From IMG/VR virus record IMGVR_UViG_3300033124_000732: 64,000 nt of DNA; one strand, 5' to 3'. A program made the position numbers and the translations under genes. The notes below the pieces were generated by a model that saw only the letters and a program-made list of their open reading frames with translations, did no database searches and was not told the origin of the DNA. The DNA comes from a virus (Duplodnaviria > Heunggongvirae > Uroviricota > Caudoviricetes). Positions 2,518 to 64,000 of this stretch are shown in pieces; the stretch's first letter is position 1, and each line of letters opens with the position of its first letter.

Positions 2518-2530
2518 GATCCTTTACTTA

Positions 2531-3001
2531 TTAAGCAGCTCGAAGACTTTTAAATCTATCTGCCGCGTATGATGCCGCAAATGCTTCAGGCTTCACAAAC
2601 GGAATCACATTGCATGTTCCTTTGATGTAGCCCACAGCTTGTGAGATCACACAGCTTGAACCGTACTGTTCGTCTGGGTTGATGTCCAGGTGAACTTCAA
2701 CTTGACGTCCTTCCAGCACATCGGCCAGCTTCAAATATAGTTCTGAAACCTTGTAAACTTCAGTCATCAAGCGCATGGCTGGCTTGCCTGGTTTCACGTC
2801 CCACACACGTTCGCGTTGAACTTCACCAAACAGTTTGCAACCATTGTTGCCGTTGATATGTACCACAATGGCCAACACATAGTCAGCATACCACACACCG
2901 TCAAGTTTGATTCGTTCAGAATCGCAGCCAAGGTAGATGCGAGTTTCCGGTGTTTGAGCCTGAATAAATTCTGCTACCGATGCTATGTTGAGCTTTTTCA
3001 T
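2531..3001 (-). CDS. hypothetical protein (156 aa)
   Basis: Clean minus-strand ORF between tRNAs. No motif recognised. Confidence 0.55.
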   Translation of the reverse strand: MKKLNIASVAEFIQAQTPETRIYLGCDSERIKLDGVWYADYVLAIVVHINGNNGCKLFGEVQRERVWDVKPGKPAMRLMTEVYKVSELYLKLADVLEGRQVEVHLDINPDEQYGSSCVISQAVGYIKGTCNVIPFVKPEAFAASYAADRFKSLRAA

Positions 3002-3044
3002 TTTTTACTTTCTATTTAACTCAAGAACTGTTACAGTTATATTA

Positions 3045-7873: not shown

Positions 7874-7947
7874 TGGCGTCCAGGGAGGGACTCGAACCCC
7901 CACAAACGGTTTTGGAGACCGTTGTGCTGCCATTACACCACCCAGAC
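7874..7947 (-). tRNA. tRNA-Trp(CCA)
   Basis: Anticodon stem ACGGT/ACCGT with loop CTCCAAA. T-loop GGTTCGAGTCC. Encoded CCA. Confidence 0.85.
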
Positions 7948-7959
7948 ATTAAATACAGC

Positions 7960-8571
7960 ATGAACATTACATTCACACCTGCGTCTAAAATTCTTTACTT
8001 TGCTGACATTCAAGATCCGCCATTTGACTGGCACACTTTGTGTCAAGCCTGCCAGGATCTCGCCTGGAATGTTGAACCCACAATTGGCAATCAAGATCAA
8101 TTTGCTGTGATGTGCTTGGCACCACACTGTGCTGCATTTGACCACCGACTCAATGCGTTTCAACAATATTTTGATGAAGATTTCAAACAACGTCTGTTGA
8201 ACCTGTTGTTTGACAACCCAGAGTTCATGATGACCTGGTGCATGCCTGACCGTAAACACTTTGACCGCATCACCAAACTCAATTGTAACTGGATAGGCAC
8301 TCCGGCCCGCTATGATCATCATCCCTGGCACCTTGACAGTCGCAATCAAGTGGCCTTTGGCATGATCTACTTTACTGAACAAGACAATCCATTGCACAGC
8401 ACTTGGTTTGACACTGGACTTTACGGCCACTTGTTGCGTGTACCTTCAGGTCCAGGACAAGGCTGGCTGGTGATCAATACCGATCAAGCTCGCCATTGCG
8501 GAATGAACAATACTGACAACATTCGCTACAGCTTCAAGTTCAGTCTTGACTTACTGACCAAACAAATCTAA
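7960..8571 (+). CDS. hypothetical protein (203 aa), plus strand
   Basis: ORF track 7873..8571, trimmed to the internal Met at 7960 because the 5' extension overlaps tRNA-Trp. No motif recognised. Confidence 0.45.
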   Translation: MNITFTPASKILYFADIQDPPFDWHTLCQACQDLAWNVEPTIGNQDQFAVMCLAPHCAAFDHRLNAFQQYFDEDFKQRLLNLLFDNPEFMMTWCMPDRKHFDRITKLNCNWIGTPARYDHHPWHLDSRNQVAFGMIYFTEQDNPLHSTWFDTGLYGHLLRVPSGPGQGWLVINTDQARHCGMNNTDNIRYSFKFSLDLLTKQI

Positions 8572-8760
8572 CACACTGTCTGCGGCATTTCAGCCCATGC
8601 CAGCTCAATGTGTGTATTAAAGCACTCTAAAATACTTAGGCTGCCTGTTCTTAAAGAACGCTTTAATACGCTCGGATTTTTTTATGTACAAGAACATAAG
8701 CCATCCCCGAGGCCGCCCATTTGTAGTTTAGAGTGATACAGGCTCGCGTTGCCGTTGCAC

Positions 8761-8792
8761 TAAATGAAAAACCCAGGGTTTTTACGCCTGGG
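8761..8792 (-). terminator. rho-independent terminator (minus strand)
   Basis: On the minus strand, stem CCCAGG/CCTGGG followed by TTTTTCATTTA, about 210 nt downstream of tRNA-fMet. Confidence 0.4.
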
Positions 8793-9001
8793 TCCTTGGG
8801 TAAGATACGGTTGTATACTACTTAGGACCCTCTGCCTCCTGGAATGCTATTCATGCGACCATAGGCGTGTGACCAAACTGGTGTCTGGGCAAACTTGGGT
8901 AGCAGTGAACAGAATTGTATTTTCATCATAAGTCCTATTGTACAGTATTTACCTTTCAAGGTCAACCACTGTGTTAAAGTTATTTAGCCTTTTGGCAAAA
9001 T

Positions 9002-9076
9002 TGGTTGCGGGAGACGGATTCGAACCGCCGATCTCTAGGTTATGAGCCTAGTGAGTTGCCGCTTCTCTATCCCGCG
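9002..9076 (-). tRNA. initiator tRNA-fMet(CAU)
   Basis: 5' CGCGGG... and 3' ...CCCGCAACCA as in E. coli tRNA-fMet. C1 opposite A72 is unpaired (the bacterial initiator hallmark). Anticodon loop CTCATAA. Confidence 0.85.
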
Positions 9077-10494
9077 ATATTTTATTTATATAGAAACACA
9101 TTCTATGCTTTGGGAATGACATTACTGTCAAGCGACCATCAACGGGTACGGAATGCGTTTGTATATAAAGTGGCGGACTGAGAATACATCCTAACCTAAT
9201 AGTGCCTCGAGCATTATTACAAACCTTGCGAGTCTGCTTTCTCTCGACTTCCACTAAGACCATATTGCTATGTATCCTAGTCCACTATCAGTATCGCCGT
9301 TTTTAAAGACAGGCAGTAGTCTTGTCATCACATGCTACTCTACACCATCTATCCCGTTGACCTTTAGAGCCATTCACTGTCGCTAAACAGTTACGAAACT
9401 TCCAGTATAAACAGATTTCACCTTGCGAGTTACGTCTGACTGTATTGCCTTGCGGCTACAGCATTAGATACTTTTCACACATGACCGAGTCAGTCTTTGC
9501 TTTTTTGTTAGATAGTGGTTATGAAGCCACAGCCTATTCCTTAACAGGGAATTGCTCTACGATGAGCTATATCAACCTACTGCGATGTGCTGACTCAGTT
9601 GCTTCATACTCTTTTGGAATACAAAATACAACACACCACGTTCCTTTTGTCTTGCGAACTACTCAGACGTCTTTTGCGATCAGTGTCGGGTCTCGGCTTT
9701 CGCGTACCTCCACCAACCACTAAAACTGCATACGAGCCCTTGGGTGCAACCCCTCGGACAAATACGCTACCCTTTCTCATACCAATTAACTGGGCTGGTT
9801 TTGTATAGAAGTCAGCACCACCTGTTACTTTCCACTGACTCCGGTTACCCTTGCGGGCCGGTAAGTCATTGTTCTTTCCTATACTCCCAGCGTCATTGTT
9901 ACAACCACCGGTCTTATCAGTGATCGGATCCTCACGGACCTGAGCAGGCTTGTTTACACGAACCATTGCTGGCGGAGTTGCGTAGGCTTACCTCCTTTGG
10001 CTGGGTCACCCCAGTTATTCTTCGTACAGCTGGGCGAACCATACTGCACAGGACAATAAACTGCCCTAAGTATCTATTGTATGACAAACGTCTTTTGTTG
10101 TCAAACTATTTTGGATAAACTGCCAAACAATCTATCCAAAATAGTTTCTATAGTCAAGCACCGAGAGCTACCCAATTTATGCGTCCTCCGCTAAGAGTGC
10201 AAAAGCCGATGGCGGTTATGTTAGGATCCGTTCCCGGCCGGTTGGACCCGAATAGTGATTGATCAGACCACGATACCCTTATCGATGCTTGACTATAAAA
10301 ACTAAAAGTTCGGATTTAAAAATCAAATCCTCCCACTGCTAACTACTGCTTCCCAATTTATCGTCCATCGGCACCCGTGGTAGGGCTTGCGATGCTCATC
10401 GGCCCTGAGTTCTAGCTCAGGTGATCCTTGGGATAGGACTGCTGGGCCTTAGCCTGCCCAGCATCAGGAAAATTAAATTCTCTGTATCGCTATG
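9077..10494. ncRNA. 1.4-kb non-coding region; candidate large structured RNA (GOLLD/ROOL-like?) next to tRNA-fMet
   Basis: No ORF above 120 aa in any frame. Higher GC than flanking genes. Numerous GC-rich hairpins (for example CCTGAG..CTCAGG, CTGGGC..GCCCAG, CCGGCCGG). Confidence 0.3.
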
Positions 10495-11310
10495 TTATTC
10501 ACATTTCTGCAATAACTTGGCAACTGCTATTCTAAACACACTTTCTTTCTCAGGCCAAGCATAAATGTATTGTCCTGCAAAGTCATTGACCAACAACCAC
10601 GTAATGCCTGAGGCTGTATACATGTGTGTCTCTGCCTCATAACCTGGGATGGACCTATCAAAGTCGATGCTGCCATTGCCATAGTCCTGACCATGCTCTC
10701 TAACCCAATCTGCCACACTTTGTACTTCTCTATCAGTGTTAGGGCCCATACCACCCAAATTAGCTACTACAAAGATTTTGTTAGTGGGTGTAACGGTCAT
10801 AGTCTTAAACACACTACGTCCCAGCTGTCTAATTTGGTCTTTAATGTTGCCAGGTAGTGCCGCTACTTGGTGAAAGTCTGGTACCAAGTATCCTGCCTTA
10901 CGTAGTGCATATTTTGCTGTGGTTGCCAATGTGGTAGTCTTAACTAACACTGTGGGCAAGGTCTCAGGTGGCCGGGGCTCAACACTACTAGTATGTTTTT
11001 GTGTAAACTTTACAGGCTGTTGCTCAATACTAGCGTCATATGACGGCAGGTCGGCATCAAGTTTGATGTCCAATATCTTACCCAGCATATCCTGCATGGC
11101 CCGAGTAGGTTTAATCTTACCTGCGGCCGCCAATGTTTTACTAACACTGACCTTGTTAACCTTTACAACTTTAGATTGGTCTTGTTTAACCTCAGGTTTA
11201 CCCTTGGGTTTTTCTGTGTGCTTGACAATGGGACGGGCTGTGCCGGTCTTAAAGATGTTGTCAAGATCTATGTTAATCTGCGTTTGAGTTTGTGTTTTTC
11301 TTGTTGCCAT
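10495..11310 (-). CDS. hypothetical protein (271 aa), Lys/Thr-rich N-terminus
   Basis: Clean ORF ending 4 nt before the next gene's start. Confidence 0.55.
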   Translation of the reverse strand: MATRKTQTQTQINIDLDNIFKTGTARPIVKHTEKPKGKPEVKQDQSKVVKVNKVSVSKTLAAAGKIKPTRAMQDMLGKILDIKLDADLPSYDASIEQQPVKFTQKHTSSVEPRPPETLPTVLVKTTTLATTAKYALRKAGYLVPDFHQVAALPGNIKDQIRQLGRSVFKTMTVTPTNKIFVVANLGGMGPNTDREVQSVADWVREHGQDYGNGSIDFDRSIPGYEAETHMYTASGITWLLVNDFAGQYIYAWPEKESVFRIAVAKLLQKCE

Positions 11311-12983: not shown

Positions 12984-13653
12984 ATAGTTTCACTATATGA
13001 AAACACATTAGGATGTTTGATAGAGATCGCAGTTTCGAACCTGCCCTACTGTGTCGTCCACAGACTTGTCTATCAACCACATTACGGGCCAACTGGATCC
13101 GGCGTGCTTCGTCCTCTCAGAGGCTCTGAGTGATCTGCTTTCGTGTAGTCCAAGTAGAGCCTAGCCGTCACTAGGATTTAGTTCTCTACTTGGGTACCTA
13201 CCGGAGTTGGTAACCCAATGCGTTTACATATAGTGCCCAGAACTGAATCTGGGACACTATACAAAATTAAATTTTTAATGAAACCTCGCTAACTAGTCTC
13301 GATCGACTGCGTTATTAGATGGGCTGGAGCGGTCGTCTCCATTTAATGTTCTCCGCCTCGCCCTTAAGCATATTTCAGCGCGGTCTGGCCTTTAGAACAA
13401 CCCTAAAATTTTGCTTAGGCCGAGTCTCCAAACTCGCTTCGAATCCCTTGGTTACAACCCTTTTTGCATTTCTGCTGGGTTCTTACATTCGAGGATCGCC
13501 TTGCTTTCTAACTAGTCTCTAGTATAGCATCTTCTGCTTTACCGGTCAACTTGTTTTGTAAATGCCCCGCCTTGTTGCAGGGTCTTTACAAACTCGGCTG
13601 TTTCTCTAACTTGTATCTAGTATAACACCGATACATTTATTGGTCTACCGCCA

Positions 13654-13686
13654 TAAAAAAACCCGCCTACTTGGCGGGTTTTTTGG
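13654..13686. terminator. bidirectional rho-independent terminator
   Basis: AAAAAAA-CCCGCC-TACTT-GGCGGG-TTTTTT, 18 nt downstream of the porin stop codon. Confidence 0.8.
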
Positions 13687-13703
13687 TTTGTACTACTTCT
13701 GTT

Positions 13704-14585
13704 TTAGAACTGTACGACCAACCCGCCTGCTACTTGTCTAATATCACTGGCTGCTGAGGTTCCCTCAACATTGCGATACAGAACTTGTGCATAGGTCTTT
13801 TTGCTGAAAGCATACTCGGCACCTACGTTGTAGCTCTTGATGCCATTCTCAATGCGACCATAGCTGGCCTTCACTGTGATTGGACCACCAAGGTTGTGTG
13901 CCGCACCAACCAATTGACCACGGTTGGTATTGGCAGTTGCGCCTTTGTTGTCGCTGGCAATGCCATAAACTGTGGTTGCACCAAACTTGGCACGAGCAGC
14001 CACTACGTCACTGGTTTCTGCACCAGCTTCGTAACGAGCATAAGTTACCACTGCTGGACCCACTGCGGCAACCAATGAAGCAGCATAAGGATCGGTCGTA
14101 GCACCAGTGCTACGATCAAAACTAGCAGTCACATTGCCAAGGTTCACAGAAGTGAAAGCGGCATTACTGAAACGCAAACCACGCAGGTTATGCACGTCAG
14201 CGGCTGAGCTACCAATCAATGTGCCAAACGGATCATTGTTGCTGATGGCCAAGAAGTGAGTGTGAACGCTACGGCCTAGATCAACACTTCCCATTTTGTG
14301 AGCAATACCCACAGTGCTTTGACGATCGCCAAATGCAGTGGTGCTGGTTTCTGGGCTGTTGGCCTGGATATAGGTTTCGTATGTGGCACGAGCCTTCAAT
14401 CCGCCACCCAAGTCTTCGGTGGCACGAATGCCAAAGTGACTCAAATCATTTGCCATGCCTTGAACAGCAGCGGCTGTGCCAGTCTTGGTGTTGTCAAGGT
14501 AAGTGCCAACACGACCATAGATACCAACTTGTGCGCTTGCGACACCAGCAACTGCCAGGGTCAACGCAACTAGAACTTTCTTCAT
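13704..14585 (-). CDS. outer-membrane porin (Gram-negative general porin, Betaproteobacterial Omp32-like)
   Basis: Signal peptide MKKVLVALTLAVAGVASAQ. Alternating amphipathic beta-strand pattern, Gly/Ala/Thr-rich, C-terminal Phe (...LVVQF). Own terminator downstream. Confidence 0.75.
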   Translation of the reverse strand: MKKVLVALTLAVAGVASAQVGIYGRVGTYLDNTKTGTAAAVQGMANDLSHFGIRATEDLGGGLKARATYETYIQANSPETSTTAFGDRQSTVGIAHKMGSVDLGRSVHTHFLAISNNDPFGTLIGSSAADVHNLRGLRFSNAAFTSVNLGNVTASFDRSTGATTDPYAASLVAAVGPAVVTYARYEAGAETSDVVAARAKFGATTVYGIASDNKGATANTNRGQLVGAAHNLGGPITVKASYGRIENGIKSYNVGAEYAFSKKTYAQVLYRNVEGTSAASDIRQVAGGLVVQF

Positions 14586-14659
14586 GAATAATTTTCCTTG
14601 TTAAAATAAATGATCAAATGTCGATCATAGAGTAGTATATAGCACAAACACTAAGAATG

Positions 14660-15781
14660 TCAACTATTTTCGGTAAATTCTACAGGATTTTTAAAAGATT
14701 TAAACTGTTGTCCTGTAACTCTAGTGATATCAGCTAGTTCTTCTTCTAGTCGATGTTGGAATTCAGGTTGACAATATGGCTGATACTGATAATCTAATAA
14801 ATTTCTATAGCTGGTGCCCATGCGGTACAACAGGCGATTCTTTACATCGCCCAGTCTGCGATGCTGAGTGATTGAATTATCAAACAGCAACAAATCACCA
14901 TGTTGTGTTTTGTACCAATGATCGTACACATTATTTTCGGCAAACAGTTCAGTTTTGAGCTTGATCAACAATGCATCACTTTCCGGTTGGCTCATGCCCA
15001 CAAATCCTACCACTGTGTTTGGACTAAAATGCAAACCAGCAATTCCGCCGGGACTATTGATCCGCAACGGTAACTGATTGGGAGTTGGACAAAAGTTATG
15101 TTTGAACATGTGGTCTTGAACTAGATTCAATCCAGGATTGATTTTGCCTGGTTGGAATTCATGTTGGCAAACAAGCTCATCTAACTCACTGCGAAATGCT
15201 TCAGACTGATCTTGGTACCATCGAGCAGTGGTACTAAATCCGGTGCTACTGCCAATCACATGATCGATGGCCAACAAGCCCACGCCAGGAGTAAATGCTA
15301 GATGTCCAGATTCATTGCTGTGCCATAACAATTCTCCTTCAGCAAAAATTCCTAATCTACGACCTTGTTCATCTCGTTGTCCGCTAACTCGTTGAGCTTG
15401 TCCTGTACTAACTGGAGCACGAGTATAATCGCTTTCGGTAACAAATGACTGATCCTCAGGAGTTAGTGGATATACACCAGCCTTGAGATCTCTCCACATT
15501 TTATCAAATGCTTGATGTACTGGAAGATTGCTGTCCAGTTGTAGATTGTATTTTTTTAAAAATGTATAAGGACTAAGACTGTTACTTCTACCTAAAGCCA
15601 ACATCAATTCAGACCACCTATCTGGTGTAAGGTTGGTGCCTCTAAAAATTGTAACCAATGTGTCTAAGTGCAGTTTGCCATATACTGTTTGCCATTCTTC
15701 AATGCTGATATTTTCTAAATCAGCGCCGTCGACGAACACGCCGTAGTCACCTAAGCCGGGAATTTTTGTGATAGTTACCAT
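14660..15781 (-). CDS. TauD/TfdA-like Fe(II)/2-oxoglutarate dioxygenase (putative)
   Basis: 373 aa. The WHSNESGH...H pattern resembles the TauD-family HxD/E...H iron-binding site. Assignment from motif memory only. Confidence 0.45.
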   Translation of the reverse strand: MVTITKIPGLGDYGVFVDGADLENISIEEWQTVYGKLHLDTLVTIFRGTNLTPDRWSELMLALGRSNSLSPYTFLKKYNLQLDSNLPVHQAFDKMWRDLKAGVYPLTPEDQSFVTESDYTRAPVSTGQAQRVSGQRDEQGRRLGIFAEGELLWHSNESGHLAFTPGVGLLAIDHVIGSSTGFSTTARWYQDQSEAFRSELDELVCQHEFQPGKINPGLNLVQDHMFKHNFCPTPNQLPLRINSPGGIAGLHFSPNTVVGFVGMSQPESDALLIKLKTELFAENNVYDHWYKTQHGDLLLFDNSITQHRRLGDVKNRLLYRMGTSYRNLLDYQYQPYCQPEFQHRLEEELADITRVTGQQFKSFKNPVEFTENS

Positions 15782-16153
15782 ATGAGATACTTTTTAAGAT
15801 GTGGTAGCTTATTCTGTTACGAGGAAAGCTACCGAAACCCTAAGCAGTGTTTAGGCTGCTAATGCGAACTGTTCGTCGTTTGCGTTTACGTTTTTTGCTT
15901 CTACGGCCAGGAGACCCCAACCCTAACGGCTTCTGCTTTGCCGAGCTGTCCACTCTGTTACTCTTTGCCCTGTCGAAACTATGCAGGCCCATCAAAAACA
16001 TTTTGTAGTTAGAGCCGTTTTCATTCTAACCTTATGGTATTTGACGCATCTTTCGATGGTTACAAAATGTTTATGGTGGACCTGGGGGGATTCGCACCCC
16101 CGTCCAGAACACTTTTCTCTCGGCTTCATACAGCAATAACTTACAGTATATAT

Positions 16154-16342
16154 TTATTCTCGAGGTTTGTCAATAGCTTTGGAGATGATGTCATATACTT
16201 GGGAGTATGCATCTGTTATTTTGTCTAGCTGTTGTTCTGAAACCAAATCTGTATCTTCCAGACTAACCAAGTCCTGGGCCAGATTTTCCTGTAGTTTCTT
16301 TAGTTGATTAATCACATACCTATTTATAGAACAAACGGGCAA
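16154..16342 (-). CDS. possible small acidic protein (62 aa)
   Basis: ORF only. Its start lies inside the terminator hairpin at 16333-16353, so this is doubtful. Confidence 0.25.
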   Translation of the reverse strand: MPVCSINRYVINQLKKLQENLAQDLVSLEDTDLVSEQQLDKITDAYSQVYDIISKAIDKPRE

Positions 16343-21676: not shown

Positions 21677-23308
21677 TCATGCTATTCCTGCACTGTGATA
21701 TCCGCGATGTATTGTACGTGAATCATCTAAGAATTCTTGCCAACGATCAGCGTATTTGACGCTTAACGCATGATTGGAAAACACTTCTCTAAGAATTTGG
21801 TTGACCACGCGAGGCGATACAGAACCACTATTATACAAGTTCAACAGTAGTTGTGTAAAGTATTTTTTTTCCCAAAGTGGTGGAATACTTTTGTTAAACT
21901 CATCAAACTCTTCCAAAGTTACTCCAAACCATGATAGCATTTTGTAAGTAATTTGAGTGAAGTTAAAATACGCTATGTCCAGCTCGTTAAAACTAAAACT
22001 ACCACTGATCATGCTGTGCTTGTTATTTTTGATTTCTCGTGTGCGTATTTGAAATTTTTTCATATACTCGGGATCATACACCGCTGGCGAATTGGGTATG
22101 ATGATCCAGGTGTAAAACTCCAGGCACAAATTCAATTGGTATGCCTCACGCAACAAATGCTGCCAAGTTTTGCGTGTTTGTCCAGGTAGACCTTTGATTC
22201 CTTCTAACGAAAATGTTCGATCAGGAAACCGTGACTTCAAATGGCGGATGTATGTTTTGTGTTCTTCCCAAGAAATATCTGGACGGTCTATGTTGGCCAG
22301 GATTGTGGGATCTATGTCTTGTACTGCAAATTTGCCACCTTCGCACACTCCTGCGTCTATCCAAATTTCTAAAATTTCGTATGCTCGGTCTTTTTTGTTT
22401 TTGCTGAGGTTGGGGCTTTGTGTTTTGATTCCACGTGGCGGCAAAATTTCAGCCATGAGCCGAGCAATTTCTACATCCACTGGCCATTGTCCAAAGTTGG
22501 CATCACTAATGTGTAGTTGTGTAATGCCTAACTCAGCAATCATTTCCAGTTCCGCTCTGTAATCTACCTTGCGTTTGACTGTGGTTGGCCCAAGCCCCGA
22601 AGTCCAGTCACAGAAACTGCAACTGTAGGGACACCCTCTTGAAGTTTCGTAACTGAGCTCAAACTCATATCCATGATATTCTGGATCACCTACCATTTGT
22701 TTTAGTAGATGTTGACTTTCTAAATATGGACTATACTCGGTATTTTTGATGTAGGCTGCTGGAGCCTTTTGCAGTTGATCGTTTTTGACCCACAGCAAGT
22801 TATGAGTGTTTAGAATATTTAAACTTCTGTCATAAAAATGATGACACAATATGTCGTGGAATGCTTGCTCGCCATCAGAGAACACAGCGTAGTCTGCATC
22901 TTCGTAGTCTTGTCTCCAGTCATACGTGCCATGTGCTTCAATACTAGGGCCGCCCACAATCACAATCACATCATGATTGATTTGACTTTTGAGATTGCGT
23001 GTGAGATTGATAATTGTTGGCCGGTTCCAGTTGTAAACACTAAAACATATCACATTGCACTTGTGTTGATTCACATAGTCCACAACTTGTTGTTGTGTCC
23101 AGGTGTTTACACTGATCTTGTTCCAGGTCAGATCTTCGTACAGTGTGGGATTTTTTATTTTAATGTAACTATCAAGATAGCACGGAACAGTACTGAGATA
23201 CACGCTATAGTCATATTCAAATTCTTGGTCCAATAAATTTGTTTCAGCACGATATCTTGCACCGTGAACTACACTTGGACAACTGAAGAATATTTGAATC
23301 TTTGACAT
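21677..23308 (-). CDS. radical SAM enzyme with N-terminal cobalamin-binding-like domain (543 aa)
   Basis: CxxxCxxC in ETSRGCPYSCSFCDW. N-terminal Rossmann-like B12-binding region (VIVIVGGPSIEAHG). Confidence 0.75.
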   Translation of the reverse strand: MSKIQIFFSCPSVVHGARYRAETNLLDQEFEYDYSVYLSTVPCYLDSYIKIKNPTLYEDLTWNKISVNTWTQQQVVDYVNQHKCNVICFSVYNWNRPTIINLTRNLKSQINHDVIVIVGGPSIEAHGTYDWRQDYEDADYAVFSDGEQAFHDILCHHFYDRSLNILNTHNLLWVKNDQLQKAPAAYIKNTEYSPYLESQHLLKQMVGDPEYHGYEFELSYETSRGCPYSCSFCDWTSGLGPTTVKRKVDYRAELEMIAELGITQLHISDANFGQWPVDVEIARLMAEILPPRGIKTQSPNLSKNKKDRAYEILEIWIDAGVCEGGKFAVQDIDPTILANIDRPDISWEEHKTYIRHLKSRFPDRTFSLEGIKGLPGQTRKTWQHLLREAYQLNLCLEFYTWIIIPNSPAVYDPEYMKKFQIRTREIKNNKHSMISGSFSFNELDIAYFNFTQITYKMLSWFGVTLEEFDEFNKSIPPLWEKKYFTQLLLNLYNSGSVSPRVVNQILREVFSNHALSVKYADRWQEFLDDSRTIHRGYHSAGIA

Positions 23309-34093: not shown

Positions 34094-35176
34094 ATGACAG
34101 ATTTATACCATCAAATTTATCAGGGAGAAATATTTCAAAAGAGTCAATGTATTTGGCATGAAAATATGCTCATGAATTTCTTTCGAAGCAATTTGTTATC
34201 ACTTGGATATGAACCACTAAGCGACAATAATAAAGTTTATCAACGTGGCACACGCCAAGTTGTGATATGCCTGGTTGATGATTTTTCAACCTGTAGCACA
34301 AATCACAACACATCGTTGCCTTATCTTTTTGATAAAGACACAGTAGTCATCACAGACAATTACATTACTGTCCCAACTCAATATCAAGTGTGCCAACTAC
34401 CTCCTAGTTTTTTTGGCATATACAATCATACACCGTCTGACGCAAAATGGAACCCTGACAGACGTTTTAATTTTAGTGTAAACAGGTTGGATACTAAACG
34501 TATGTTGGTATTATTAGAAATATGGAACCGTGTTATGTTAATGGCACTTAACGGATTCAAGGTTGACAATTTGGATTATATTAATTTTAATTGTTGGTCC
34601 TGGTCTGGCGACAACGGTTCAGTCAATGGATTGAAAGAAAATTTTACACAGCAATGGCAACAATTGGAATTGCAGTATCAAGAAGTTTATCAACATGTAT
34701 ATGACGACTTGTTACCACACATGCCGTTTTGTAATCATGATCTCGAACACAAACAATCACATTTACAAGCCTGGGCTAATATTGTAATAGAAACTTACAG
34801 TTCGGATACCACTGTAGCCCTCAGTGAAAAAATGTTTAGAGCTTTGTGTTTGCCTGTGCCGTGGATTGTGTATTCGGGCAAACATACTGTGGCATACTTG
34901 CACAGTTTGGGATTTGATGTTTTACATGACTTAATCAATCATGACTATGATAGTATAATTGAAAATAAAACTGCTGACCCTGGAGATAAAATGGTAGTTT
35001 TTATCTTTGAAGGACATGATGCTGTCGAAAAGATTAAAGCTACGTCGTGGCCTGAACTATCTCAACGCTGTGAACAAGCCGCACAGCATAACCAAAATTT
35101 ATTAGCGCAAATGCAATCCAACTGGCCTACAGATTTTGCCAACTGGTGGCCCAGTGTAATTGAAAAAATAAAATAA
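34094..35176 (+). CDS. hypothetical protein (360 aa), paralog of 37377..38324
   Basis: ORF 33695..35176 trimmed to the Met at 34094 because the upstream part overlaps minus-strand genes. C-terminal block SEKMFRALCLPVPWIVYSGKHTVAYLHSLGFDVLHDLINHDYD aligns with the corresponding block of 37377..38324. Confidence 0.55.
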   Translation: MTDLYHQIYQGEIFQKSQCIWHENMLMNFFRSNLLSLGYEPLSDNNKVYQRGTRQVVICLVDDFSTCSTNHNTSLPYLFDKDTVVITDNYITVPTQYQVCQLPPSFFGIYNHTPSDAKWNPDRRFNFSVNRLDTKRMLVLLEIWNRVMLMALNGFKVDNLDYINFNCWSWSGDNGSVNGLKENFTQQWQQLELQYQEVYQHVYDDLLPHMPFCNHDLEHKQSHLQAWANIVIETYSSDTTVALSEKMFRALCLPVPWIVYSGKHTVAYLHSLGFDVLHDLINHDYDSIIENKTADPGDKMVVFIFEGHDAVEKIKATSWPELSQRCEQAAQHNQNLLAQMQSNWPTDFANWWPSVIEKIK

Positions 35177-36711
35177 TGTGCGGCATATTGTTTGTGAAAA
35201 GTCAGCGGCCTCTTGACCTTGACCTACACCTACAAGCAGTTGATAAAATACATGCTCGTGGCCCAGACTTCACACATTACCAGCATCATGACAATATTTT
35301 TATAGCGCAAACTGTGTTACATATCACAGGTGAAGATGAGTTTTATCATCGACCACGATCAGACTTCTTGGCCTACAATGGTGAAGTTTATAACTATCGT
35401 TGGTTTGGCCGATACACTACAGACACAGAATTAGTGTATCGCACTGTGCGAGAACAAAACTACAAAAAGATTCCGTACTTTGAAGGTCCTTGGGCTTGGG
35501 TGTACACTGATTTTGAGTCAGTGAGATTTGCAACAGATCCACAAGGCGAGCGTTGTTTGTATCGATATCAAGACGATGATATTTTGATTGTTAGTAGTGA
35601 AGTGTCGGCAATCTTGTGTTATACACAGCCCAAAATTCAAGTTGACGCATGGAGTCAAAAGCACTGGCCTACCATACGCCGCACACCTTATCAGGGCATT
35701 GAACGCTGTGAACCAGGTCGATTGTATACCGAAACTGGCTTGAGTTTTCAGCTTGACAGCATGTTTGACTGGGTCCAAGCACCACAGTCTATGAGTGACT
35801 CAGAAGCTCAAGAAGAATTTGATTGGATATTTAACAAGGTCATAGCAGACATGCGCCCTACGGAACCTGCAGGATTGACCTTTAGTGGTGGCGTGGACTC
35901 TGGAATCATACTGGCTGCCATGCCGGAGTTTGCGGGATTGTATACCACAGTGTGTGAAGGCAAAGACACTGTGAGCATGAGAATTAGAGATTTCTTAACT
36001 GATCAACAATGTCAAAATCTCACTGAGTTGCCCATGACCGAACGTGACTGGGCACAGGACTATGTTGACATCATTGAGTGTTCACAAATGCCTGTGCAGA
36101 GTTGGAGTTTTGTTGGCCAATGGCACATTGCTCATCACTGTCAACAACGTATCTTGTTTACTGGCATAGCCGCTGATGAATTATTTGGCGGATATCCTGT
36201 GTATCGCAACATGGCATTTGACATCAAAACATCTGCAAGTCCTTACAGTTGTTTTGATCCATCAGACACAGACAGTCAACGTCTTTGGGATCAGTGTGTG
36301 TCTGCGTCACAAGGGCATGCAGGTGCTGCCACACTACTAATGGATTACCTTGTGCAGATCACAGCAGTTGATGCACGTGGCGTAGATACCATGACCATGG
36401 CACACAGTATAGAACCGCGTTCGCCATTCATGCATCCTAAGATTATAAAGTTTGCTCTTAACTTACCTTGGCACTTGAGGCAAGGCAAACCATTATTACA
36501 AAACAAGTTTTTAGAAAAATGGCCTAGAGATTTACTGTTGCCCAAACAAGGATTTGCAGGACACTGCAACGACAGTTTGCCTTGGATGGGGGTACATGTG
36601 CCTGCATCTCTTGATCGATCTGAACAGTGGAAACAGATTCAGTTGGCTACTTTTTTACAATATTGTGGTATTGATTCCAGTCAATCACGTGATCAAACCA
36701 CTCAGGAGTAA
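35176..36711 (+). CDS. asparagine-synthetase-like glutamine amidotransferase (class II GATase plus PP-loop synthetase domain)
   Basis: N-terminal MCGI (catalytic Cys2). SGGVDSGI PP-loop in LTFSGGVDSGIILAAM. 511 aa. The ATG overlaps the upstream stop. Confidence 0.8.
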   Translation: MCGILFVKSQRPLDLDLHLQAVDKIHARGPDFTHYQHHDNIFIAQTVLHITGEDEFYHRPRSDFLAYNGEVYNYRWFGRYTTDTELVYRTVREQNYKKIPYFEGPWAWVYTDFESVRFATDPQGERCLYRYQDDDILIVSSEVSAILCYTQPKIQVDAWSQKHWPTIRRTPYQGIERCEPGRLYTETGLSFQLDSMFDWVQAPQSMSDSEAQEEFDWIFNKVIADMRPTEPAGLTFSGGVDSGIILAAMPEFAGLYTTVCEGKDTVSMRIRDFLTDQQCQNLTELPMTERDWAQDYVDIIECSQMPVQSWSFVGQWHIAHHCQQRILFTGIAADELFGGYPVYRNMAFDIKTSASPYSCFDPSDTDSQRLWDQCVSASQGHAGAATLLMDYLVQITAVDARGVDTMTMAHSIEPRSPFMHPKIIKFALNLPWHLRQGKPLLQNKFLEKWPRDLLLPKQGFAGHCNDSLPWMGVHVPASLDRSEQWKQIQLATFLQYCGIDSSQSRDQTTQE

Positions 36712-46629: not shown

Positions 46630-47476
46630 AGGGACTGTCCTTCCATTGTCTTAATCGTTTGTGTGGATCTTGCAGGACCATTCTGGCCCAGATGTTTGGA
46701 TTTTTACCGGTCATTGAATCTCTAAACCACGTGGTATCGCGGCCTATGCTGTCAAGATAGTCTGCAATTTTTTCAGTTTCTTCAACCCTGCGTTTGCGCC
46801 AGGTAATGTGATTGAAATCTCTAGGATCATTGCCGGGCATGTTTTCCAACATGATACGTTCTTTGAATGTTTCATCCAAGTTCTCGCCAGTAAGATCATA
46901 GCGTTCATGGTGTACCATTACAGGAATTGTTTTCACAATATCCAACATCCAAGCCACTTGGCTGGTCCAGGCATCGTTGATTTGATGCGGACTCAAATGG
47001 CCAGTAATTTCCACCCACTTCTTTGGCAGGATAGGAAAGATAGCATAAGGGTGTTCGTGATTGGTTTCGGCACGGAGCAAATTGAATTCTTGCCCGTTGT
47101 CTCGAATCACCTGATCCCAATCCTGTGTTTTCATCACAGCATCGTCATTCCAAAAGAACAACCAAGAGCCTTGACTGTGCTTGGCCAACTCGTTAAGGTA
47201 CTCGTTTAGTCGCATGTACCCTAATCTTTCAAACTGTATGGCGCTGTATTCTACACCAAGGTCATCAAGATAAGGTTGTACGACATCCACAAAGTGTTTG
47301 ATGTTTTCACTATCATCATTATCAAATGCCAACATCACTTCTATTCGACTGGGGTCTTTGGCCCGGTCAAGTAGAGTGCGTAGGCATTGTTCTAGTGGTT
47401 TTGGTCTGCCACGAGTGGGCAATAAAATACTGATGTCGATGGGATTGTCAAGGGGTAATAAGTTCTCTGTTGTCAT
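46619..47476 (-). CDS. glycosyltransferase family 2-like protein
   Basis: ISILLPTRGRP...MLAFDNDDSE, a GT-A DxD-containing N-terminal fold. 285 aa. Confidence 0.6.
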   Translation of the reverse strand: MTTENLLPLDNPIDISILLPTRGRPKPLEQCLRTLLDRAKDPSRIEVMLAFDNDDSENIKHFVDVVQPYLDDLGVEYSAIQFERLGYMRLNEYLNELAKHSQGSWLFFWNDDAVMKTQDWDQVIRDNGQEFNLLRAETNHEHPYAIFPILPKKWVEITGHLSPHQINDAWTSQVAWMLDIVKTIPVMVHHERYDLTGENLDETFKERIMLENMPGNDPRDFNHITWRKRRVEETEKIADYLDSIGRDTTWFRDSMTGKNPNIWARMVLQDPHKRLRQWKDSPFEQ

Positions 47477-49421
47477 ATTCTATTTCAGGTAAGTTGGCTG
47501 AATTAGTTTTTGTTATTGTTGTTTTTCCAAAATTCCGCTTGCGAGCAAAATACATGTTCTCTAAGAACCGATCCATGCTCATGGTTTTATCTTCCACGCT
47601 GTCAAATTTGTACAAGCATGGTGTGTTGATGTCAGCATCGTCCAGTAGATATCCAAGAAAGTCATAGTCAAACTTTTGTTGAATTGGCAATGCTGGTAAA
47701 TCTTTGTAATCAATCACATAGTTTCTCTGAAACTGCAACAACTGATTTAGTATGTTGCTGTCAATAGTATACGTGGTTCTTACAAAGTTGTCAATGATAT
47801 CGAACACATGATTGATCTTTTGTTGCTGTTGCATATACAAAGTGGTTCGATGCACAAGATTCCATCCAAACACTTCGATGTTGCCAATTCGAGGATGATT
47901 GATACGACCGTCTGTGGTCCAGTTTCTAAAGTAACTGCGTGTCTCATCAAACTGTTGTTGAAACCATGCATCGCTTTCAATATACTTGTACAAACTGTCG
48001 TAGAACTCACTGTAGTCAATGTCATGAGCTTTGGCCAAGTATCTAGCAATGTACGTGGTCAACCCGTTGATGTGAAAAGTTTGAATAAAACTGTTCCATA
48101 CCAGTGTGTCCAACATCATTTCTCGTGGAATGTCTTTGGTTCCTACCACAACATCCACACACTCGTCCATGTCTACATCACCATAGCTGCCACTCATGTA
48201 GTCATACACTGGCACTGAATCCAGCTTCCACATTCGTTTTTGCAAGAGATTCATCTCGGCATTTTCCAACAACTGCGCTTGGAGAATGTTCACACCAGTA
48301 TGGTTACCTGCACGGAAGATTTGCCAAAAAGCATTTTTCCAAGTTTCCACAGTTTCACCTGGCAAGCCCAAGATAACTTCTGTGTACACAGGAATATTGT
48401 TGCGATCACACAAAGCAAAGATTTCGTCAATCTTGTGTTGATCAAGATTTCTACGCTTGATGTTTTCCAACACATCGTGGTCCATGCTTTGCACACTCAC
48501 AGTAAGGCCTTGACCAAAGTTGGGGCTTTCGTCGATCAATTTCTTTACAATGCCCACTACTTCGTTCTTTTGATTCTTGGCCCATGTCATAGAAAATGAC
48601 GCCAGCTTGGCCCATTGCTTTTGTACTTCAATCAACTTGTCCACAATCATGTTGTCACGTTCAATGAACATGCCAAAGTTGGCATCTGTGATTGTGACAA
48701 ATCCGCAATGGCGACCAATCCATTCTAATTCATGGAACACTCTAGTGAGTTCAAATTTCTTGACCTTGTTGTAAGTGAGACTGCCCCAGTCACAAAAGGT
48801 ACACTGATAAGGGCAACCGCGATTGGTTTCCAATGTAGCATTCCAAATTACATCAGGATTTTCAGCTATGATTCGATCAAAGATGCCGGCAAGGTAAGGA
48901 CTGGGGATTTGATCTAGATTGTCGATTCTGGCACAATCTCCAGTGTCTACTAGCCCTGCTGGTGTGTTAATCAACAAGCCAGGAATGTGCGTAAAGTCTG
49001 TGTCAAAATCTTCTAGGATGCGTTTGAATGTGATCTCGCCTTCCATCTTGCTCACAAGATCCATGAAAGGTTCTTTCACAAACAATTCAGGATCCGTAAT
49101 AGCAGGCTCGGGTCCACCAAATATAATTTTTACTTTGGGATTGAGTTCTTTGATTCGACGTGCTAGTTTGTAGTTGTATCTGTGATTCCATACATAGGCA
49201 CTAAACGCCACAATGTCATTGTGTTGCAATCTTGCGGCTGCTTCTTCAATGGGCTCTCTACGCCAAATTAATTCATCAATTTCCCAGGCATTTTTAATAT
49301 GCTCAAACCCAAAGGCGTAACTCAAAATCACACCTGCAGAATACGGCAAGTAGTAGGCATTGAATTCTTTAGGCCCTTGTTGAAAGTTGGGCTGTACAAA
49401 ACTTATTGTTTTTTTGTTCAT
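47448..49421 (-). CDS. cobalamin-binding-domain radical SAM enzyme (657 aa)
   Basis: N-terminal B12-binding-like Rossmann segment (KVKIIFGGPEP). CxxxCxxC in TNRGCPYQCTFCDWGS. Confidence 0.75.
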   Translation of the reverse strand: MNKKTISFVQPNFQQGPKEFNAYYLPYSAGVILSYAFGFEHIKNAWEIDELIWRREPIEEAAARLQHNDIVAFSAYVWNHRYNYKLARRIKELNPKVKIIFGGPEPAITDPELFVKEPFMDLVSKMEGEITFKRILEDFDTDFTHIPGLLINTPAGLVDTGDCARIDNLDQIPSPYLAGIFDRIIAENPDVIWNATLETNRGCPYQCTFCDWGSLTYNKVKKFELTRVFHELEWIGRHCGFVTITDANFGMFIERDNMIVDKLIEVQKQWAKLASFSMTWAKNQKNEVVGIVKKLIDESPNFGQGLTVSVQSMDHDVLENIKRRNLDQHKIDEIFALCDRNNIPVYTEVILGLPGETVETWKNAFWQIFRAGNHTGVNILQAQLLENAEMNLLQKRMWKLDSVPVYDYMSGSYGDVDMDECVDVVVGTKDIPREMMLDTLVWNSFIQTFHINGLTTYIARYLAKAHDIDYSEFYDSLYKYIESDAWFQQQFDETRSYFRNWTTDGRINHPRIGNIEVFGWNLVHRTTLYMQQQQKINHVFDIIDNFVRTTYTIDSNILNQLLQFQRNYVIDYKDLPALPIQQKFDYDFLGYLLDDADINTPCLYKFDSVEDKTMSMDRFLENMYFARKRNFGKTTITKTNSANLPEIEYDNRELITP

Positions 49422-61691: not shown

Positions 61692-62633
61692 TCATTCTTG
61701 GCGAATTACTTTTGCCAGAACTTGCCCGCCACGCAAGCTACGGACTTCTCCGGGCTTGTGCATTTCAAACCAAGCAATGTCACCAGTACCGGTACATTGT
61801 TCGATAATTTTATAGCCAAGATTTCTGGCTATTGTTTGTATCCGACTGCCTGGTGTATAACACATCCAAGCGTTTTCTACTGCTCCAACACCGTTCCAGT
61901 TGTCGCATTCATTGTAGGTAAACACTAATGCACCACCAGGACGTAGTTTTTGGTATATCTCTGTGAGAAACTTTTCAATCATCTCAATGGGTTTCCAATT
62001 AAAATAGTTGTAGGCAAAAACTAGTCCAAATTGGTTAGACGGAAGTGCTGTAAAAATTTCTGTGTTTTTCCAGTCGTTGATCACATAAGGTCTCAGTCGC
62101 CGTTGGTATTCTTGAGTAAACGGACTCATTGCAACGTTAATTAATTCTCGATCATGGTCCACAAGATACAGCGGATCCATAGGCACCATATCTTCTATAA
62201 ATGTTTCGCGTCTGGCACCAAGAACCATACCGGGTAATCTCCAATCGGTATAGTTTTTTATTGTGTTGCGCAGGCGTTCGTGATCGTCAAAATCAATATT
62301 CAACTTGCGATTGATCAGATGTTCTACTGTTTCAAAACACATCTCCTGCTCGTATCTCTTCCAACTTTCTGCATAATATTCAGGGGCCAAGCGATCAACG
62401 TCGTTTTGTAATTGTTGTTTTAATGCCTGAAGTGATTGATCAAATTTACCAATAGAATGTTTGACACCTGCAAGTTTTTCATCAAGATCTGAGTTTGCGG
62501 AATGATATTGCAAGTCTCGATTTTTTACCGCATGCAAAATGTTATCTAACTTGTCAGTTATATTACCATAAGAAGGATCCATGTCAGTACTGTCTAACAT
62601 GTTTAAGTATGCAACAACTTGGCTTAGCTTCAT
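61692..62633 (-). CDS. SAM-dependent methyltransferase with N-terminal coiled-coil region
   Basis: C-terminal LRPGGALVFTY (MTase post-I/II block). Start at the Met whose ATG overlaps the polymerase stop. Confidence 0.55.
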   Translation of the reverse strand: MKLSQVVAYLNMLDSTDMDPSYGNITDKLDNILHAVKNRDLQYHSANSDLDEKLAGVKHSIGKFDQSLQALKQQLQNDVDRLAPEYYAESWKRYEQEMCFETVEHLINRKLNIDFDDHERLRNTIKNYTDWRLPGMVLGARRETFIEDMVPMDPLYLVDHDRELINVAMSPFTQEYQRRLRPYVINDWKNTEIFTALPSNQFGLVFAYNYFNWKPIEMIEKFLTEIYQKLRPGGALVFTYNECDNWNGVGAVENAWMCYTPGSRIQTIARNLGYKIIEQCTGTGDIAWFEMHKPGEVRSLRGGQVLAKVIRQE

Positions 62634-64000
62634 TCGAATGAAAATAGTGATGTAAAAGTGTTTTCTGTGTTGGTAGCAGCCGCAAGGTCCCACTCCAACA
62701 CACCCAGCAAGTTATCGACCTTTTGATCCACAACAGTTGCTTCCATTAACCCATCGTCAAACGGCAGTTCAGTAAACCATGCAGGCAATCTTTGTTCATC
62801 GGTAGGATAGCCAATTGACGTCCATCCAAGTGCATTTGATTTGAGTTTGCACACAATGGTTTTCATACCATCCACGACCTGCATTGAGTAGTTGTCTGAA
62901 TTCATTCTACGCATTTGATTCCAGTTCATTGCGGCTCTAACGTGCCCGGGCATGTTTGCTTTGCCAAGACGTGCTTCTTCTGCCGCATACTTGGTCAAGT
63001 TGTTCACACGCTTGGGTGACCCTTTCTCCCAGCCTGGCCGCTCTTTGAATTCATACTTGAATTCTCTAATGCGTTCAATAATTTCATCTCGTTGTGTACC
63101 TGCCAGTACTTTATTTAGAATTTCTAGCAAGAAGTCTTGAATTACTTTGGGAGTATCACTGCGTTTCAAATCCAAGCCCATAGCCTTGGTCTTGCCAATC
63201 TTGCCATCCACATCCAATCGCTTGCCTTCCAAGTCAATGATGTTCACAGCATAACGCTTCTTGGTAATGAACAAACTGCGGTCAGCAACCAGTTCACGGC
63301 CAGCTTTGATCAAGGATCCCATGTCTCTGGGACAATGGAATGCCTGTTCCATAAACGCTGGAAAGCTCTCGTTTACCTGATCAGCAATTGAGTCATACAG
63401 TTGGATGCAAGTTTCTTTTGACCATTCCATACGTCCTTCTGCAACTTCTTTTTCCAGTATGGGCCACGCAGAGAAATAGCATGAGTCTGTATCACCATAG
63501 ATGATGGCCTTGCCTGTGTGATCATATTCGCCTGTGATACACTCGTTGATGTGAGCATCCATGTGCTTGGCAATTGATCTGCCTGCCAGTGTGGTTGACT
63601 GCCCAATGCGCTTGTCAAAGAATCTACAGCCTGGATTCAAAATAGCACCATACAAGGAGTTAAGGTTAATCTTCTTGACCAGCTGACGCTTGTCCCAGAA
63701 CGCAATCTCTTTGGGATCCTTGGTTTCTTTCTTCTTGGCCTGTAGCTCTTGTCGCTCACGATACCAGCGTTCTAGCAAGCCGGGGATGATACCTTTCTTC
63801 TCGTAAGTGAGAATGGTACCATTGGCAGTGAGGATCCAGGGCTGGTTGCTATCAAAGATCATGTGCCAGATTTCCATGGCCGAGTGGACTGACTCTTCGC
63901 CGCCTTCCCAGTCAATGGTAATTTCTGTGCCACGTTGCTGTTCCATTACGGCTGTGTATTCTAAGCTGGCAAACAGGCCTTCCCATGCAGCCGCAAAACT
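62630..64000 (-). CDS. family B DNA polymerase, C-terminal portion (gene continues beyond window end)
   Basis: Motif B KINLNSLYG and motif C IYGDTDS. The reading frame stays open upstream of 63946 through position 64000. Confidence 0.85.
   Translation of the reverse strand, partial: SFAAAWEGLFASLEYTAVMEQQRGTEITIDWEGGEESVHSAMEIWHMIFDSNQPWILTANGTILTYEKKGIIPGLLERWYRERQELQAKKKETKDPKEIAFWDKRQLVKKINLNSLYGAILNPGCRFFDKRIGQSTTLAGRSIAKHMDAHINECITGEYDHTGKAIIYGDTDSCYFSAWPILEKEVAEGRMEWSKETCIQLYDSIADQVNESFPAFMEQAFHCPRDMGSLIKAGRELVADRSLFITKKRYAVNIIDLEGKRLDVDGKIGKTKAMGLDLKRSDTPKVIQDFLLEILNKVLAGTQRDEIIERIREFKYEFKERPGWEKGSPKRVNNLTKYAAEEARLGKANMPGHVRAAMNWNQMRRMNSDNYSMQVVDGMKTIVCKLKSNALGWTSIGYPTDEQRLPAWFTELPFDDGLMEATVVDQKVDNLLGVLEWDLAAATNTENTFTSLFSFE

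Follow-up and report, generated by a model that had tools for sequence, protein, structure and literature searches.

The interval between positions 9,077 and 10,494 of the window, the whole 64,000-nt stretch of viral DNA analysed here, is very probably a tandem of minus-strand RNA genes (a GOLLD RNA and two small structured RNAs that we call A and B) lying in a tRNA island; the phage is large and uncultivated. The presence of a GOLLD RNA gene is established, and both of its domains have conserved structure. An initial annotation made from the letters alone had proposed the interval as a giant structured RNA of the GOLLD or ROOL type, and GOLLD has been borne out, since the Rfam model RF02032 matches with 203.8 bits against a gathering score of 150. 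The same proposal took the whole 1.4 kb as one giant RNA, and this part did not hold. GOLLD accounts for about 990 of the 1418 nt (9085..10070), and the other ~320 nt, the upstream third at 10468..10148, are two separate and unrelated small structured RNAs, A and B. In every element the covariation stands well above both of the controls used, namely pairing partners slid along the alignment and 500 shuffles. The features of the block and of its downstream flank are as follows.

10468..10297, minus strand: small structured RNA A, with a core at 10468..10329 (~140 nt); covariation in 36 homologs
10298..10148, minus strand: small structured RNA B, ~150 nt; covariation in eight homologs
10106..10144, strand not assigned: AT-rich hairpin, CTATTTTGGATA...TATCCAAAATAG, read from the sequence, directly 5′ of the promoter
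10104..10076, minus strand: predicted sigma-70-like promoter, TTGACA-17 nt-TACAAT, 11 of 12 consensus positions
~10070..9085, minus strand: full GOLLD RNA, placed by promoter, homology limits, Rfam and 3′ helix; both ends predicted
10070..9640, minus strand: GOLLD 5′ domain, ~430 nt, outside the Rfam model; from homologs and covariation
9639..9175, minus strand: GOLLD 3′ domain, Rfam RF02032, the universally conserved half of the family
9576..9506, minus strand: decayed tRNA-Asn(GUU)-like insert, Rfam tRNA 46.9 bits (gathering score 29)
9169..9085, minus strand: clade-specific 3′ helix beyond the Rfam model; covariation on the aligned arms
9002..9076, minus strand: initiator-like tRNA-Met(CAU), called by ARAGORN, Rfam tRNA 61.7 bits

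The GOLLD gene and its two domains

The window has 31 tRNA genes and a tmRNA in two pieces, almost all of them encoded on the minus strand, and when the whole of it was scanned with Rfam 15 at gathering thresholds, GOLLD was the sole match besides tRNA and tmRNA. The match has an E-value of 4.4e-56 and covers positions 1–416 of the 416-position model without truncation. The Infernal search that the initial annotation had suggested thus comes out for one of its two named families and not for the other: ROOL (RF03087) gave no match in the whole window at the gathering threshold or in 7900–10700 at E ≤ 5. This second scan, run over 7900–10700 at E ≤ 5 with permissive filters, returned nothing beyond GOLLD, tRNA and tmRNA, and 10100–10500 had no overlapping match in it. 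Sixteen homologs of the same clade, taken from the alignment or from related loci, all score 160–216 bits when rescanned with RF02032. A phage tRNA island with a tRNA in the linker is the textbook setting of GOLLD, and the copy is therefore a further member of a known family.

RF02032 covers only the conserved 3′ half of GOLLD, and so the remainder of the region was worked out by comparison. The motif CCAAAG-N5-AAGCCTACGCA from the putative 5′ domain retrieved 30 stretches from viral contigs, about 25 of which align across both halves in BLAST, with homology that runs from 10070–10067 to near 9175. An alignment of 16 sequences (A3), folded with RNAalifold, gave 208 pairs for the whole RNA, of which 145 are compensated. 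When the 5′ domain is taken by itself on this alignment, 96.6% of the cells are paired against 34–41% with slid partners, changes on both sides are seen in 60 of the 91 pairs against 13–20, and none of the 500 shuffles reaches the observed value. Comparative covariation, which had been named as a check on the giant RNA, is positive in homologs both for the 5′ domain and for the whole RNA. The minimum free energy of 9085–10070 on the minus strand lies at z = -4.0 relative to shuffles. From the predicted start (~10070) to the end of the model (9175) the RNA measures ~896 nt, and 986 nt if the 3′ helix is included; lengths above 800 nt are common in the family. A full-text search with signature strings of the 5′ domain found no paper.

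In the 3′ domain a covarying pairing AAGAC:GUCUU (A3 columns 794–798 with 807–811) interlocks with GCC:GGC as an H-type pseudoknot, which would correspond to the L22-J17/22 pseudoknot of the solved GOLLD structure. A pairing of the linker GCAAAGAC with the GUCUUU loop was considered as a candidate for the published J13/15-L20 kissing bridge and was dropped, because the loop shows perfect covariation with the AAGAC strand next to it, with which it pairs in cis.

The base composition follows the elements. GC content is 0.51 in the GOLLD 5′ domain and in A, 0.50 in B and 0.42 in the GOLLD 3′ domain. The region had been described as richer in GC than its neighbours; at 0.453 it does exceed the right, coding flank (0.405) and the window (0.436), but not the left, tRNA-rich flank (0.472).

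Ends of the GOLLD gene and the adjoining tRNA

The predicted promoter places the transcription start of GOLLD near 10070. Promoter-like sites in the scanned region are no more numerous than in shuffles, and thus the scan alone proves nothing and the support for this promoter is comparative. The pattern TTGACA-N17-TAyAAT is found in 10 of 17 homologs, where it ends 6–8 nt 5′ of the conserved start CUUAGGGCAG, and in two other homologs the 3′ end of a tRNA takes its place. The AT-rich hairpin is kept beside the promoter in four related loci (L013, L035, L059 and L069). In the closest relative, L013, a 1.1-kb insert with a 323-aa gene on the opposite strand lies upstream, and hairpin and promoter stay with GOLLD. 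The hairpin is probably an insulator or a terminator between B and GOLLD.

Past the end of the Rfam model, the clade adds a helix of its own. It consists in the window of two 19-nt arms (9169..9151 and 9103..9085) that enclose an apical region of 47 nt, and it has an internal mismatch that is conserved. Twelve of 15 homologs have it as an AU-rich helix of 17–22 bp with the core AAACACAUU / AGUGUGUUU and a variable apex of 27–72 nt. On the aligned arms 93.9% of the cells are paired against 32–62% with slid partners, and both sides have changed in 8 of 18 pairs against 0–3. The helix may act in processing or in stabilising the RNA, possibly as an RNase III site.

The initiator tRNA that the initial annotation had placed next to the region is indeed there, as a tRNA-Met(CAT) at 9002–9076 on the minus strand. 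It shows the initiator-type C1xA72 mismatch, but of the three G:C pairs that mark the anticodon stem of initiators only two are present, and it lies on the same strand as GOLLD, 8 nt past the 3′ helix and 98 nt past the end of the Rfam model. The order GOLLD, then tRNA-Met (with tRNA-Cys between them in some cases), is conserved in L048, L059, L066 and L069. No terminator lies between GOLLD and tRNA-Met. From the layout we infer that the two are co-transcribed and would be released by processing, with one cut at the long 3′ helix and another, made by RNase P, at the tRNA.

A decayed tRNA in the linker

The tRNA-like insert sits in the variable linker of the GOLLD 3′ domain, at model positions ~63–140, and ARAGORN does not call it at 9576..9506. 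The clade homologs have a canonical tRNA of 55–64 bits at the same linker site in every one, with the anticodons GUU (Asn), UUU or CUU (Lys) and UCU (Arg), which correspond to the codons AAN or AGA. Defects common to the window and L013 (alignment A6) are the loss of one G of the D-loop GG, the change of G53 to C and a 1-nt deletion in the T stem. The insert in the window also has the T loop UUCAUAA and a bulged acceptor stem, and it is best read as a pseudo-tRNA and not as a canonical functional tRNA. Despite these defects the GOLLD around it scores like its relatives, and its domains and promoter are intact; GOLLD is thus kept even where the tRNA no longer works. That a dead tRNA sits in an intact GOLLD speaks against delivery of that tRNA as the selected function here.

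According to a different view, the nested tRNA is the functional product, GOLLD is a precursor or scaffold that controls its release (“inhibited storage”; PMC12990946), and the copy in the window is a dying GOLLD. The canonical linker tRNAs that the clade relatives keep would fit this idea, which has been published for the tRNA-Phe of Mycolicibacterium (PMC12990946). We consider it unlikely in the present case, as the tRNA of the window and L013 has lost G18/G19, G53 and a T-stem base and the GOLLD still reaches 203.8 bits, and many GOLLDs, env-38 among them, are without any tRNA. A GOLLD with a dead linker tRNA is also a piece of natural evidence that bears on the published “tRNA storage” hypothesis.

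Two small structured RNAs upstream of GOLLD

All three of the perfect GC-rich hairpins quoted in the initial annotation exist, but they are located in A and B and none is inside the giant RNA. Two of them belong to A, namely CCTGAG..CTCAGG (CCTGAGTTCTAGCTCAGG, at 10404–10421) as its helix 5 and CTGGGC...GCCCAG (at 10442–10461) as its helix 2, both conserved with compensatory changes, and the third, CCGGCCGG (at 10234–10241), is in B.

A folds into six nested helices with two candidate pseudoknots, CCU:AGG and CCCAA:UUGGG. Its 3′ part holds a weak terminator-like hairpin (10330..10312) followed by a T-rich tail. Two exact motifs retrieved 36 distinct homologs from viral contigs (alignment A5), in which near-invariant motifs of 19 nt and 16 nt are found. 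On a hand-drawn structure 99.6% of the cells are paired against 21–41% with slid partners, both sides have changed in 20 of 38 pairs against 1–6, and none of the 500 shuffles reaches the observed value. One of the pseudoknots is supported by covariation; CCCAA:UUGGG is invariant, being partly fixed by the search patterns. Conserved G.U pairs assign A to the minus strand.

The homologs of A usually start 5–10 nt after the 3′ end of a tRNA, or after a small ORF ending in VYRLGHSHQ(S/N)Y, and a hairpin with a T-run usually follows on their 3′ side. A cultured phage, Bordetella phage PHB04 (vB_BbrM_PHB04, MF663786, which infects Bordetella bronchiseptica), has at 47140–47261 an unannotated stretch that is 77% identical to A and in which the helices are compensated. 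Outside viruses, the exact 19-mer was searched in 185,579 bacterial and archaeal species genomes and gave five matches, about the number expected by chance, in unrelated coding sequence and with no further similarity around them. A has no Rfam match at E ≤ 5, and a full-text search with its signature strings found no paper. Hammerhead, twister and HDV-like ribozymes, suggested by the strings CUGAUG and GUCC..CCCAAG..GAUAAA, were considered for A and rejected, their core motifs being incomplete and without a match in Rfam.

B is built differently, with a 15-bp closing stem (UAUAGUCAAGCAUCG / CGGUGCUUGACUAUA) around four or five inner helices. In eight homologs folded with RNAalifold (alignment A4), 96.8% of the cells are paired against 31–44% with slid partners, and in 22 of the 38 pairs both partners have changed, against 3–7. 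An invariant G.U pair (A4 columns 63–85) places B on the minus strand, and B has no Rfam match at E ≤ 5. The two RNAs share a motif, GACG(C)AUAAAUUGGG, and B was examined as a possible paralog of A. With a covariance model of A (R1) the window gave only one match, which is not B, and 35 other loci gave none; thus B is no detectable paralog of A.

A further possibility is that A and B act at the level of DNA, as protein-binding palindromes, ends of mobile elements or clusters of promoters and terminators. B is bounded by its 15-bp inverted repeat with the promoter-like hexamers TTGACT and TATAGT, and the whole block is variably present among relatives, both of which speak for this reading. Against this, in A as well as in B the conserved G.U pairs would turn into C.A mismatches if the other strand, or DNA, were what pairs; short helices, several of them nested and with compensatory changes, are what folded RNA typically shows; and A usually lies 5–10 nt past a tRNA 3′ end and is then followed by a hairpin and T-run; we therefore regard the DNA-level reading as quite improbable. 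More probably, A and B add to the stable RNAs that phage tRNA islands encode and are processed from transcripts in which tRNAs are included. The degree of conservation of A suggests a specific molecular partner or a catalytic core over a simple processing by-product. We see about even chances that A and B stand for two families of small structured RNA, both so far undescribed, that belong to phage tRNA islands. They are concrete candidates for new phage RNA families, with A available in a cultured phage.

Independent modules in one block

The window, L013 and L035 have A, B and GOLLD as neighbours with one orientation, and B is found 5′ of GOLLD also in L059. Elsewhere they part company. More than 30 contigs carry A but no GOLLD, and A is missing from most GOLLD loci. 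Since the covariance model of A finds its single copy in the window and none in other GOLLD loci, the three are independent modules, though frequent neighbours in the lineage of the window.

The contiguity of the three on one strand is also what one would expect if the whole 1.4 kb were a single giant RNA, in effect a longer GOLLD whose additional 5′ domains are A and B, and the hairpin at the end of A is weak enough for read-through to be possible. This reading is nevertheless very improbable: a strong predicted promoter, conserved in 10 of 17 homologs, separates B from GOLLD, and the homology shared by ~25 GOLLDs starts just after it; in L013 an extra ORF, the 323-aa gene on the opposite strand, parts B from GOLLD; A and GOLLD mostly occur one without the other; and A and B are each closed by their own helices. 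Separate genes remain the preferred reading.

The statement that 9077–10494 is free of ORFs is right in substance and not to the letter. Mechanical ORFs of up to 120 aa occur, the two of note being one of 120 aa (9604..9966, minus strand) and one of 92 aa (9445..9723, plus strand). None of the six ORFs in and around the region matches Pfam or PHROGs, and the frame of the 120-aa ORF is not kept in 11 of 15 homologs, where at least two stops or length changes that shift the frame interrupt it. A decayed protein-coding gene with incidental hairpins could appeal to these ORFs, and to the 120-aa frame being open in L053 and L069, whose 5′ domains are the most similar, but it deserves next to no credence given the lack of Pfam and PHROGs matches, the broken frames, substitutions that track base-pairing and not codon structure in the comparison on A3, and the match to the GOLLD model (E 4e-56). 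An intact coding gene in place of the RNA in a related phage, which the initial annotation had named as the sign of a pseudogene, was looked for among the relatives and none was found.

Known systems and a possible mode of action

The GOLLD RNA family reportedly goes back to Weinberg et al. in 2009, and stable expression with induction in lytic growth counts among its traits. The RNA of the window resembles the family in its full-length match to the model, its two-domain layout, its size of ~900 nt, its internal variable linker and its place in a phage tRNA island. Known GOLLDs lie near phage tRNA islands and have a conserved 3′ domain and a variable 5′ domain, and their linker is inside the cage, where it sometimes holds tRNAs (PMC12286853; PMC12990946). 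The solved GOLLDs form 10-, 12- or 14-mers (Kretsch et al., 2025, PMC12286853; review PMC12990946), with the 14-mer of env-38 (PDB 9MEE) and the 12-mer of the Streptococcus agalactiae GOLLD (PDB 9L0R) as examples. Compared with these, the clade of the window adds its 17–22 bp helix past the end of the model, and its linker insert is degenerate here. The env-38 GOLLD likewise adjoins a tRNA-Met, but the 5′ domain of the window has no detectable primary-sequence similarity to it. In nhmmer searches with profiles of the 5′ and 3′ domains of the clade, env-38 gave no match, and this includes the 3′ domain, which is homologous by the covariance model; such searches thus lack the power to tell whether the 5′ domain shares the canonical P1-P12 architecture of the solved GOLLDs.

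An embedded tRNA is also found in the GOLLDs of Mycolicibacterium and Mycobacterium tRNA arrays, where it is a tRNA-Phe (Morgado et al., 2020, as related in PMC12990946). As far as that account goes, the arrangement is the same: the single-stranded linker (J13/15) of the 3′ domain houses the tRNA, and the gene is part of a tRNA array. The host of the present GOLLD differs, being a large freshwater-type phage, and the tRNAs of its clade are of the Asn, Lys or Arg type, with a pseudo-tRNA in the window. ROOL (RF03087) is likewise a large ornate RNA of phages and prophages that lies near tRNAs and forms RNA-only cages, but its sequence and fold are unrelated to those of the RNA in the window, which its model does not match.

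By analogy with the solved structures, the GOLLD transcript would fold into its two domains, and 10 to 14 copies of it would assemble by themselves, with no protein needed, into a closed homo-oligomeric shell. The 5′ domains would cap this shell, and the linker would bring its tRNA-like insert into the interior. The idea of such a cage is carried over from two other GOLLDs, and between their 5′ domains and the one described here no sequence similarity is detectable. Our best guess at its role, which is speculation of low confidence, is that the cage might sequester or store tRNA or translation components during lytic growth. In the lineage of the window the insert no longer has what a working tRNA needs, and it could therefore serve only as a structural spacer or as a mimic of cargo. 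Bolder still, and less likely, would be a joint action of the three RNAs, in which the GOLLD cage might, for instance, take up A and B as cargo or use them as cofactors.

The oligomer number of GOLLD depends on its 5′ domain. The clade assembled here, with ~25 full-length GOLLDs from large freshwater-type phages, gives covariation-supported models of the 5′ domain and of the 3′ helix, both of which are outside the Rfam model, and these could guide structural constructs on how the 5′ domain sets that number. For A and B the closest analogy is provided by rnaC and rnaD (species 1 and 2) of phage T4, which are stable RNAs of ~120–150 nt encoded in the tRNA cluster of that phage and apparently processed from transcripts that also contain tRNAs. 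A and B have conserved folds of their own, and the comparison is meant as an analogy only, with no relationship claimed.

Distribution among relatives

Cultured phages offer few relatives of the block. Megablast of 21 kb against them matched only a tRNA fragment, and a distant blastn search with the region gave only tRNA-Met matches and A in Bordetella phage PHB04. The relatives are viral contigs of IMG/VR, up to 374 kb long, and L013, L020 and L029 among them come from freshwater samples. For the gene next to the block (10495..11310, minus strand), six relatives were found in IMG/VR. In the closer ones (L002–L006) tRNAs follow directly after this gene and the RNA block is absent there; only the most distant, L007, has a GOLLD downstream of it (187.5 bits). 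Being absent at this position from the closest relatives by the neighbouring gene, the block is variably present, and it is thus dispensable or mobile.

A tRNA nested in the GOLLD linker

A tRNA is inserted in the linker of GOLLD, the giant phage RNA, and its position is defined on A3, the alignment of 16 GOLLD sequences:

A3 columns 536-610, nested tRNA, in viral loci L048, L050, L053-L056, L059, L060, L065, L066, L069, L074, L075 and L007

The nested tRNA is homologous throughout the GOLLD-bearing clade and its anticodon is variable (GUU, AUU, UUU, CUU or UCU), the codons read by all of these being AAN or AGA. The anticodon stem is identical in the nested tRNAs of L053 and L059 despite their different identities, Lys (UUU) and Asn (GUU), which suggests that the identity of this tRNA has been switched through single anticodon changes.

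Element A in other phages

Element A, the structured RNA upstream of GOLLD, is also found in a cultured phage of 94 kb, and in many viral contigs it directly follows a small conserved ORF:

L001 3001-3122 (MF663786.1 47140-47261), copy of element A in an unannotated gap of Bordetella phage vB_BbrM_PHB04
L017 7817-8029 and L025 10882-11220, examples of the ORF of approximately 70 aa just upstream of element A

The copy in a cultured phage opens element A to experiment. Genes for tRNA-Met, tRNA-Asn and tRNA-Pro together with a two-piece tmRNA are all located upstream of element A in PHB04. The ORF of the viral contigs ends in ...VVYRLGHSHQ(S/N)Y, and only 3-8 nt separate its stop codon from the start of element A.

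In L013, the closest relative of the window, with A and GOLLD 96-98% identical, an ORF on the opposite strand has been inserted between the small RNA element B and the GOLLD promoter:

L013 9400-10371, minus strand in the locus, ORF of 323 aa

Judged by eye from the motifs GHCISASGAIE and FGFGGKNSF, its product looks like a beta-ketoacyl synthase.

Other conserved gaps of the tRNA island

In the window's tRNA island, several further gaps show conservation of their DNA sequence:

8662-8985, minus strand, conserved block of approximately 325 nt just downstream of tRNA-Met
2518-3044 and 12984-14660, minus strand, gaps conserved in several viral contigs

The first block shows 70-80% identity to L022, L010, L059 and L066, where it likewise follows tRNA-Met, and it contains a promoter-like site (8965..8937), an AGGA followed by a possible 28-aa ORF and, near 8786..8760, a hairpin with a T-run. 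The block is either a small protein gene or a further small RNA. Region 2518-3044, for instance, matches L054 at 75% identity across 483 nt, and the part 12984-14144 matches L013, L020 and L029 at 89%.

tmRNA and unusual tRNAs

15760-16187, window, minus strand, two-piece (circularly permuted) tmRNA, tag ANDEQFALAA
L065 12292-12769, L076 4636-4710 and L063 638-709, tRNAs with CUA anticodon or odd anticodon loops
L076 5770-5941, manA RNA motif (RF01745), 59.3 bits, located within the tRNA island of this relative, which carries GOLLD

The window tmRNA scores 119 bits with tmRNA_permuted and 109 bits with beta_tmRNA, and permuted tmRNAs near tRNA islands are also present in L007, L013 and PHB04. 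Some GOLLD-bearing relatives possess a CUA-anticodon tRNA, called tRNA-Pyl by ARAGORN, which is possibly an amber suppressor, and some have tRNAs with odd anticodon loops; in relatives with such tRNAs there are hints of stop-codon reassignment.

Protein genes of the window

21677-23308, 47448-49421, 14660-15781, 35176-36711 and 62630-63946, protein genes

These genes code for two B12-binding radical SAM proteins, a TauD-family dioxygenase, an asparagine synthase-like protein and a family B DNA polymerase. Such a set is consistent with a large phage that carries auxiliary metabolic genes.
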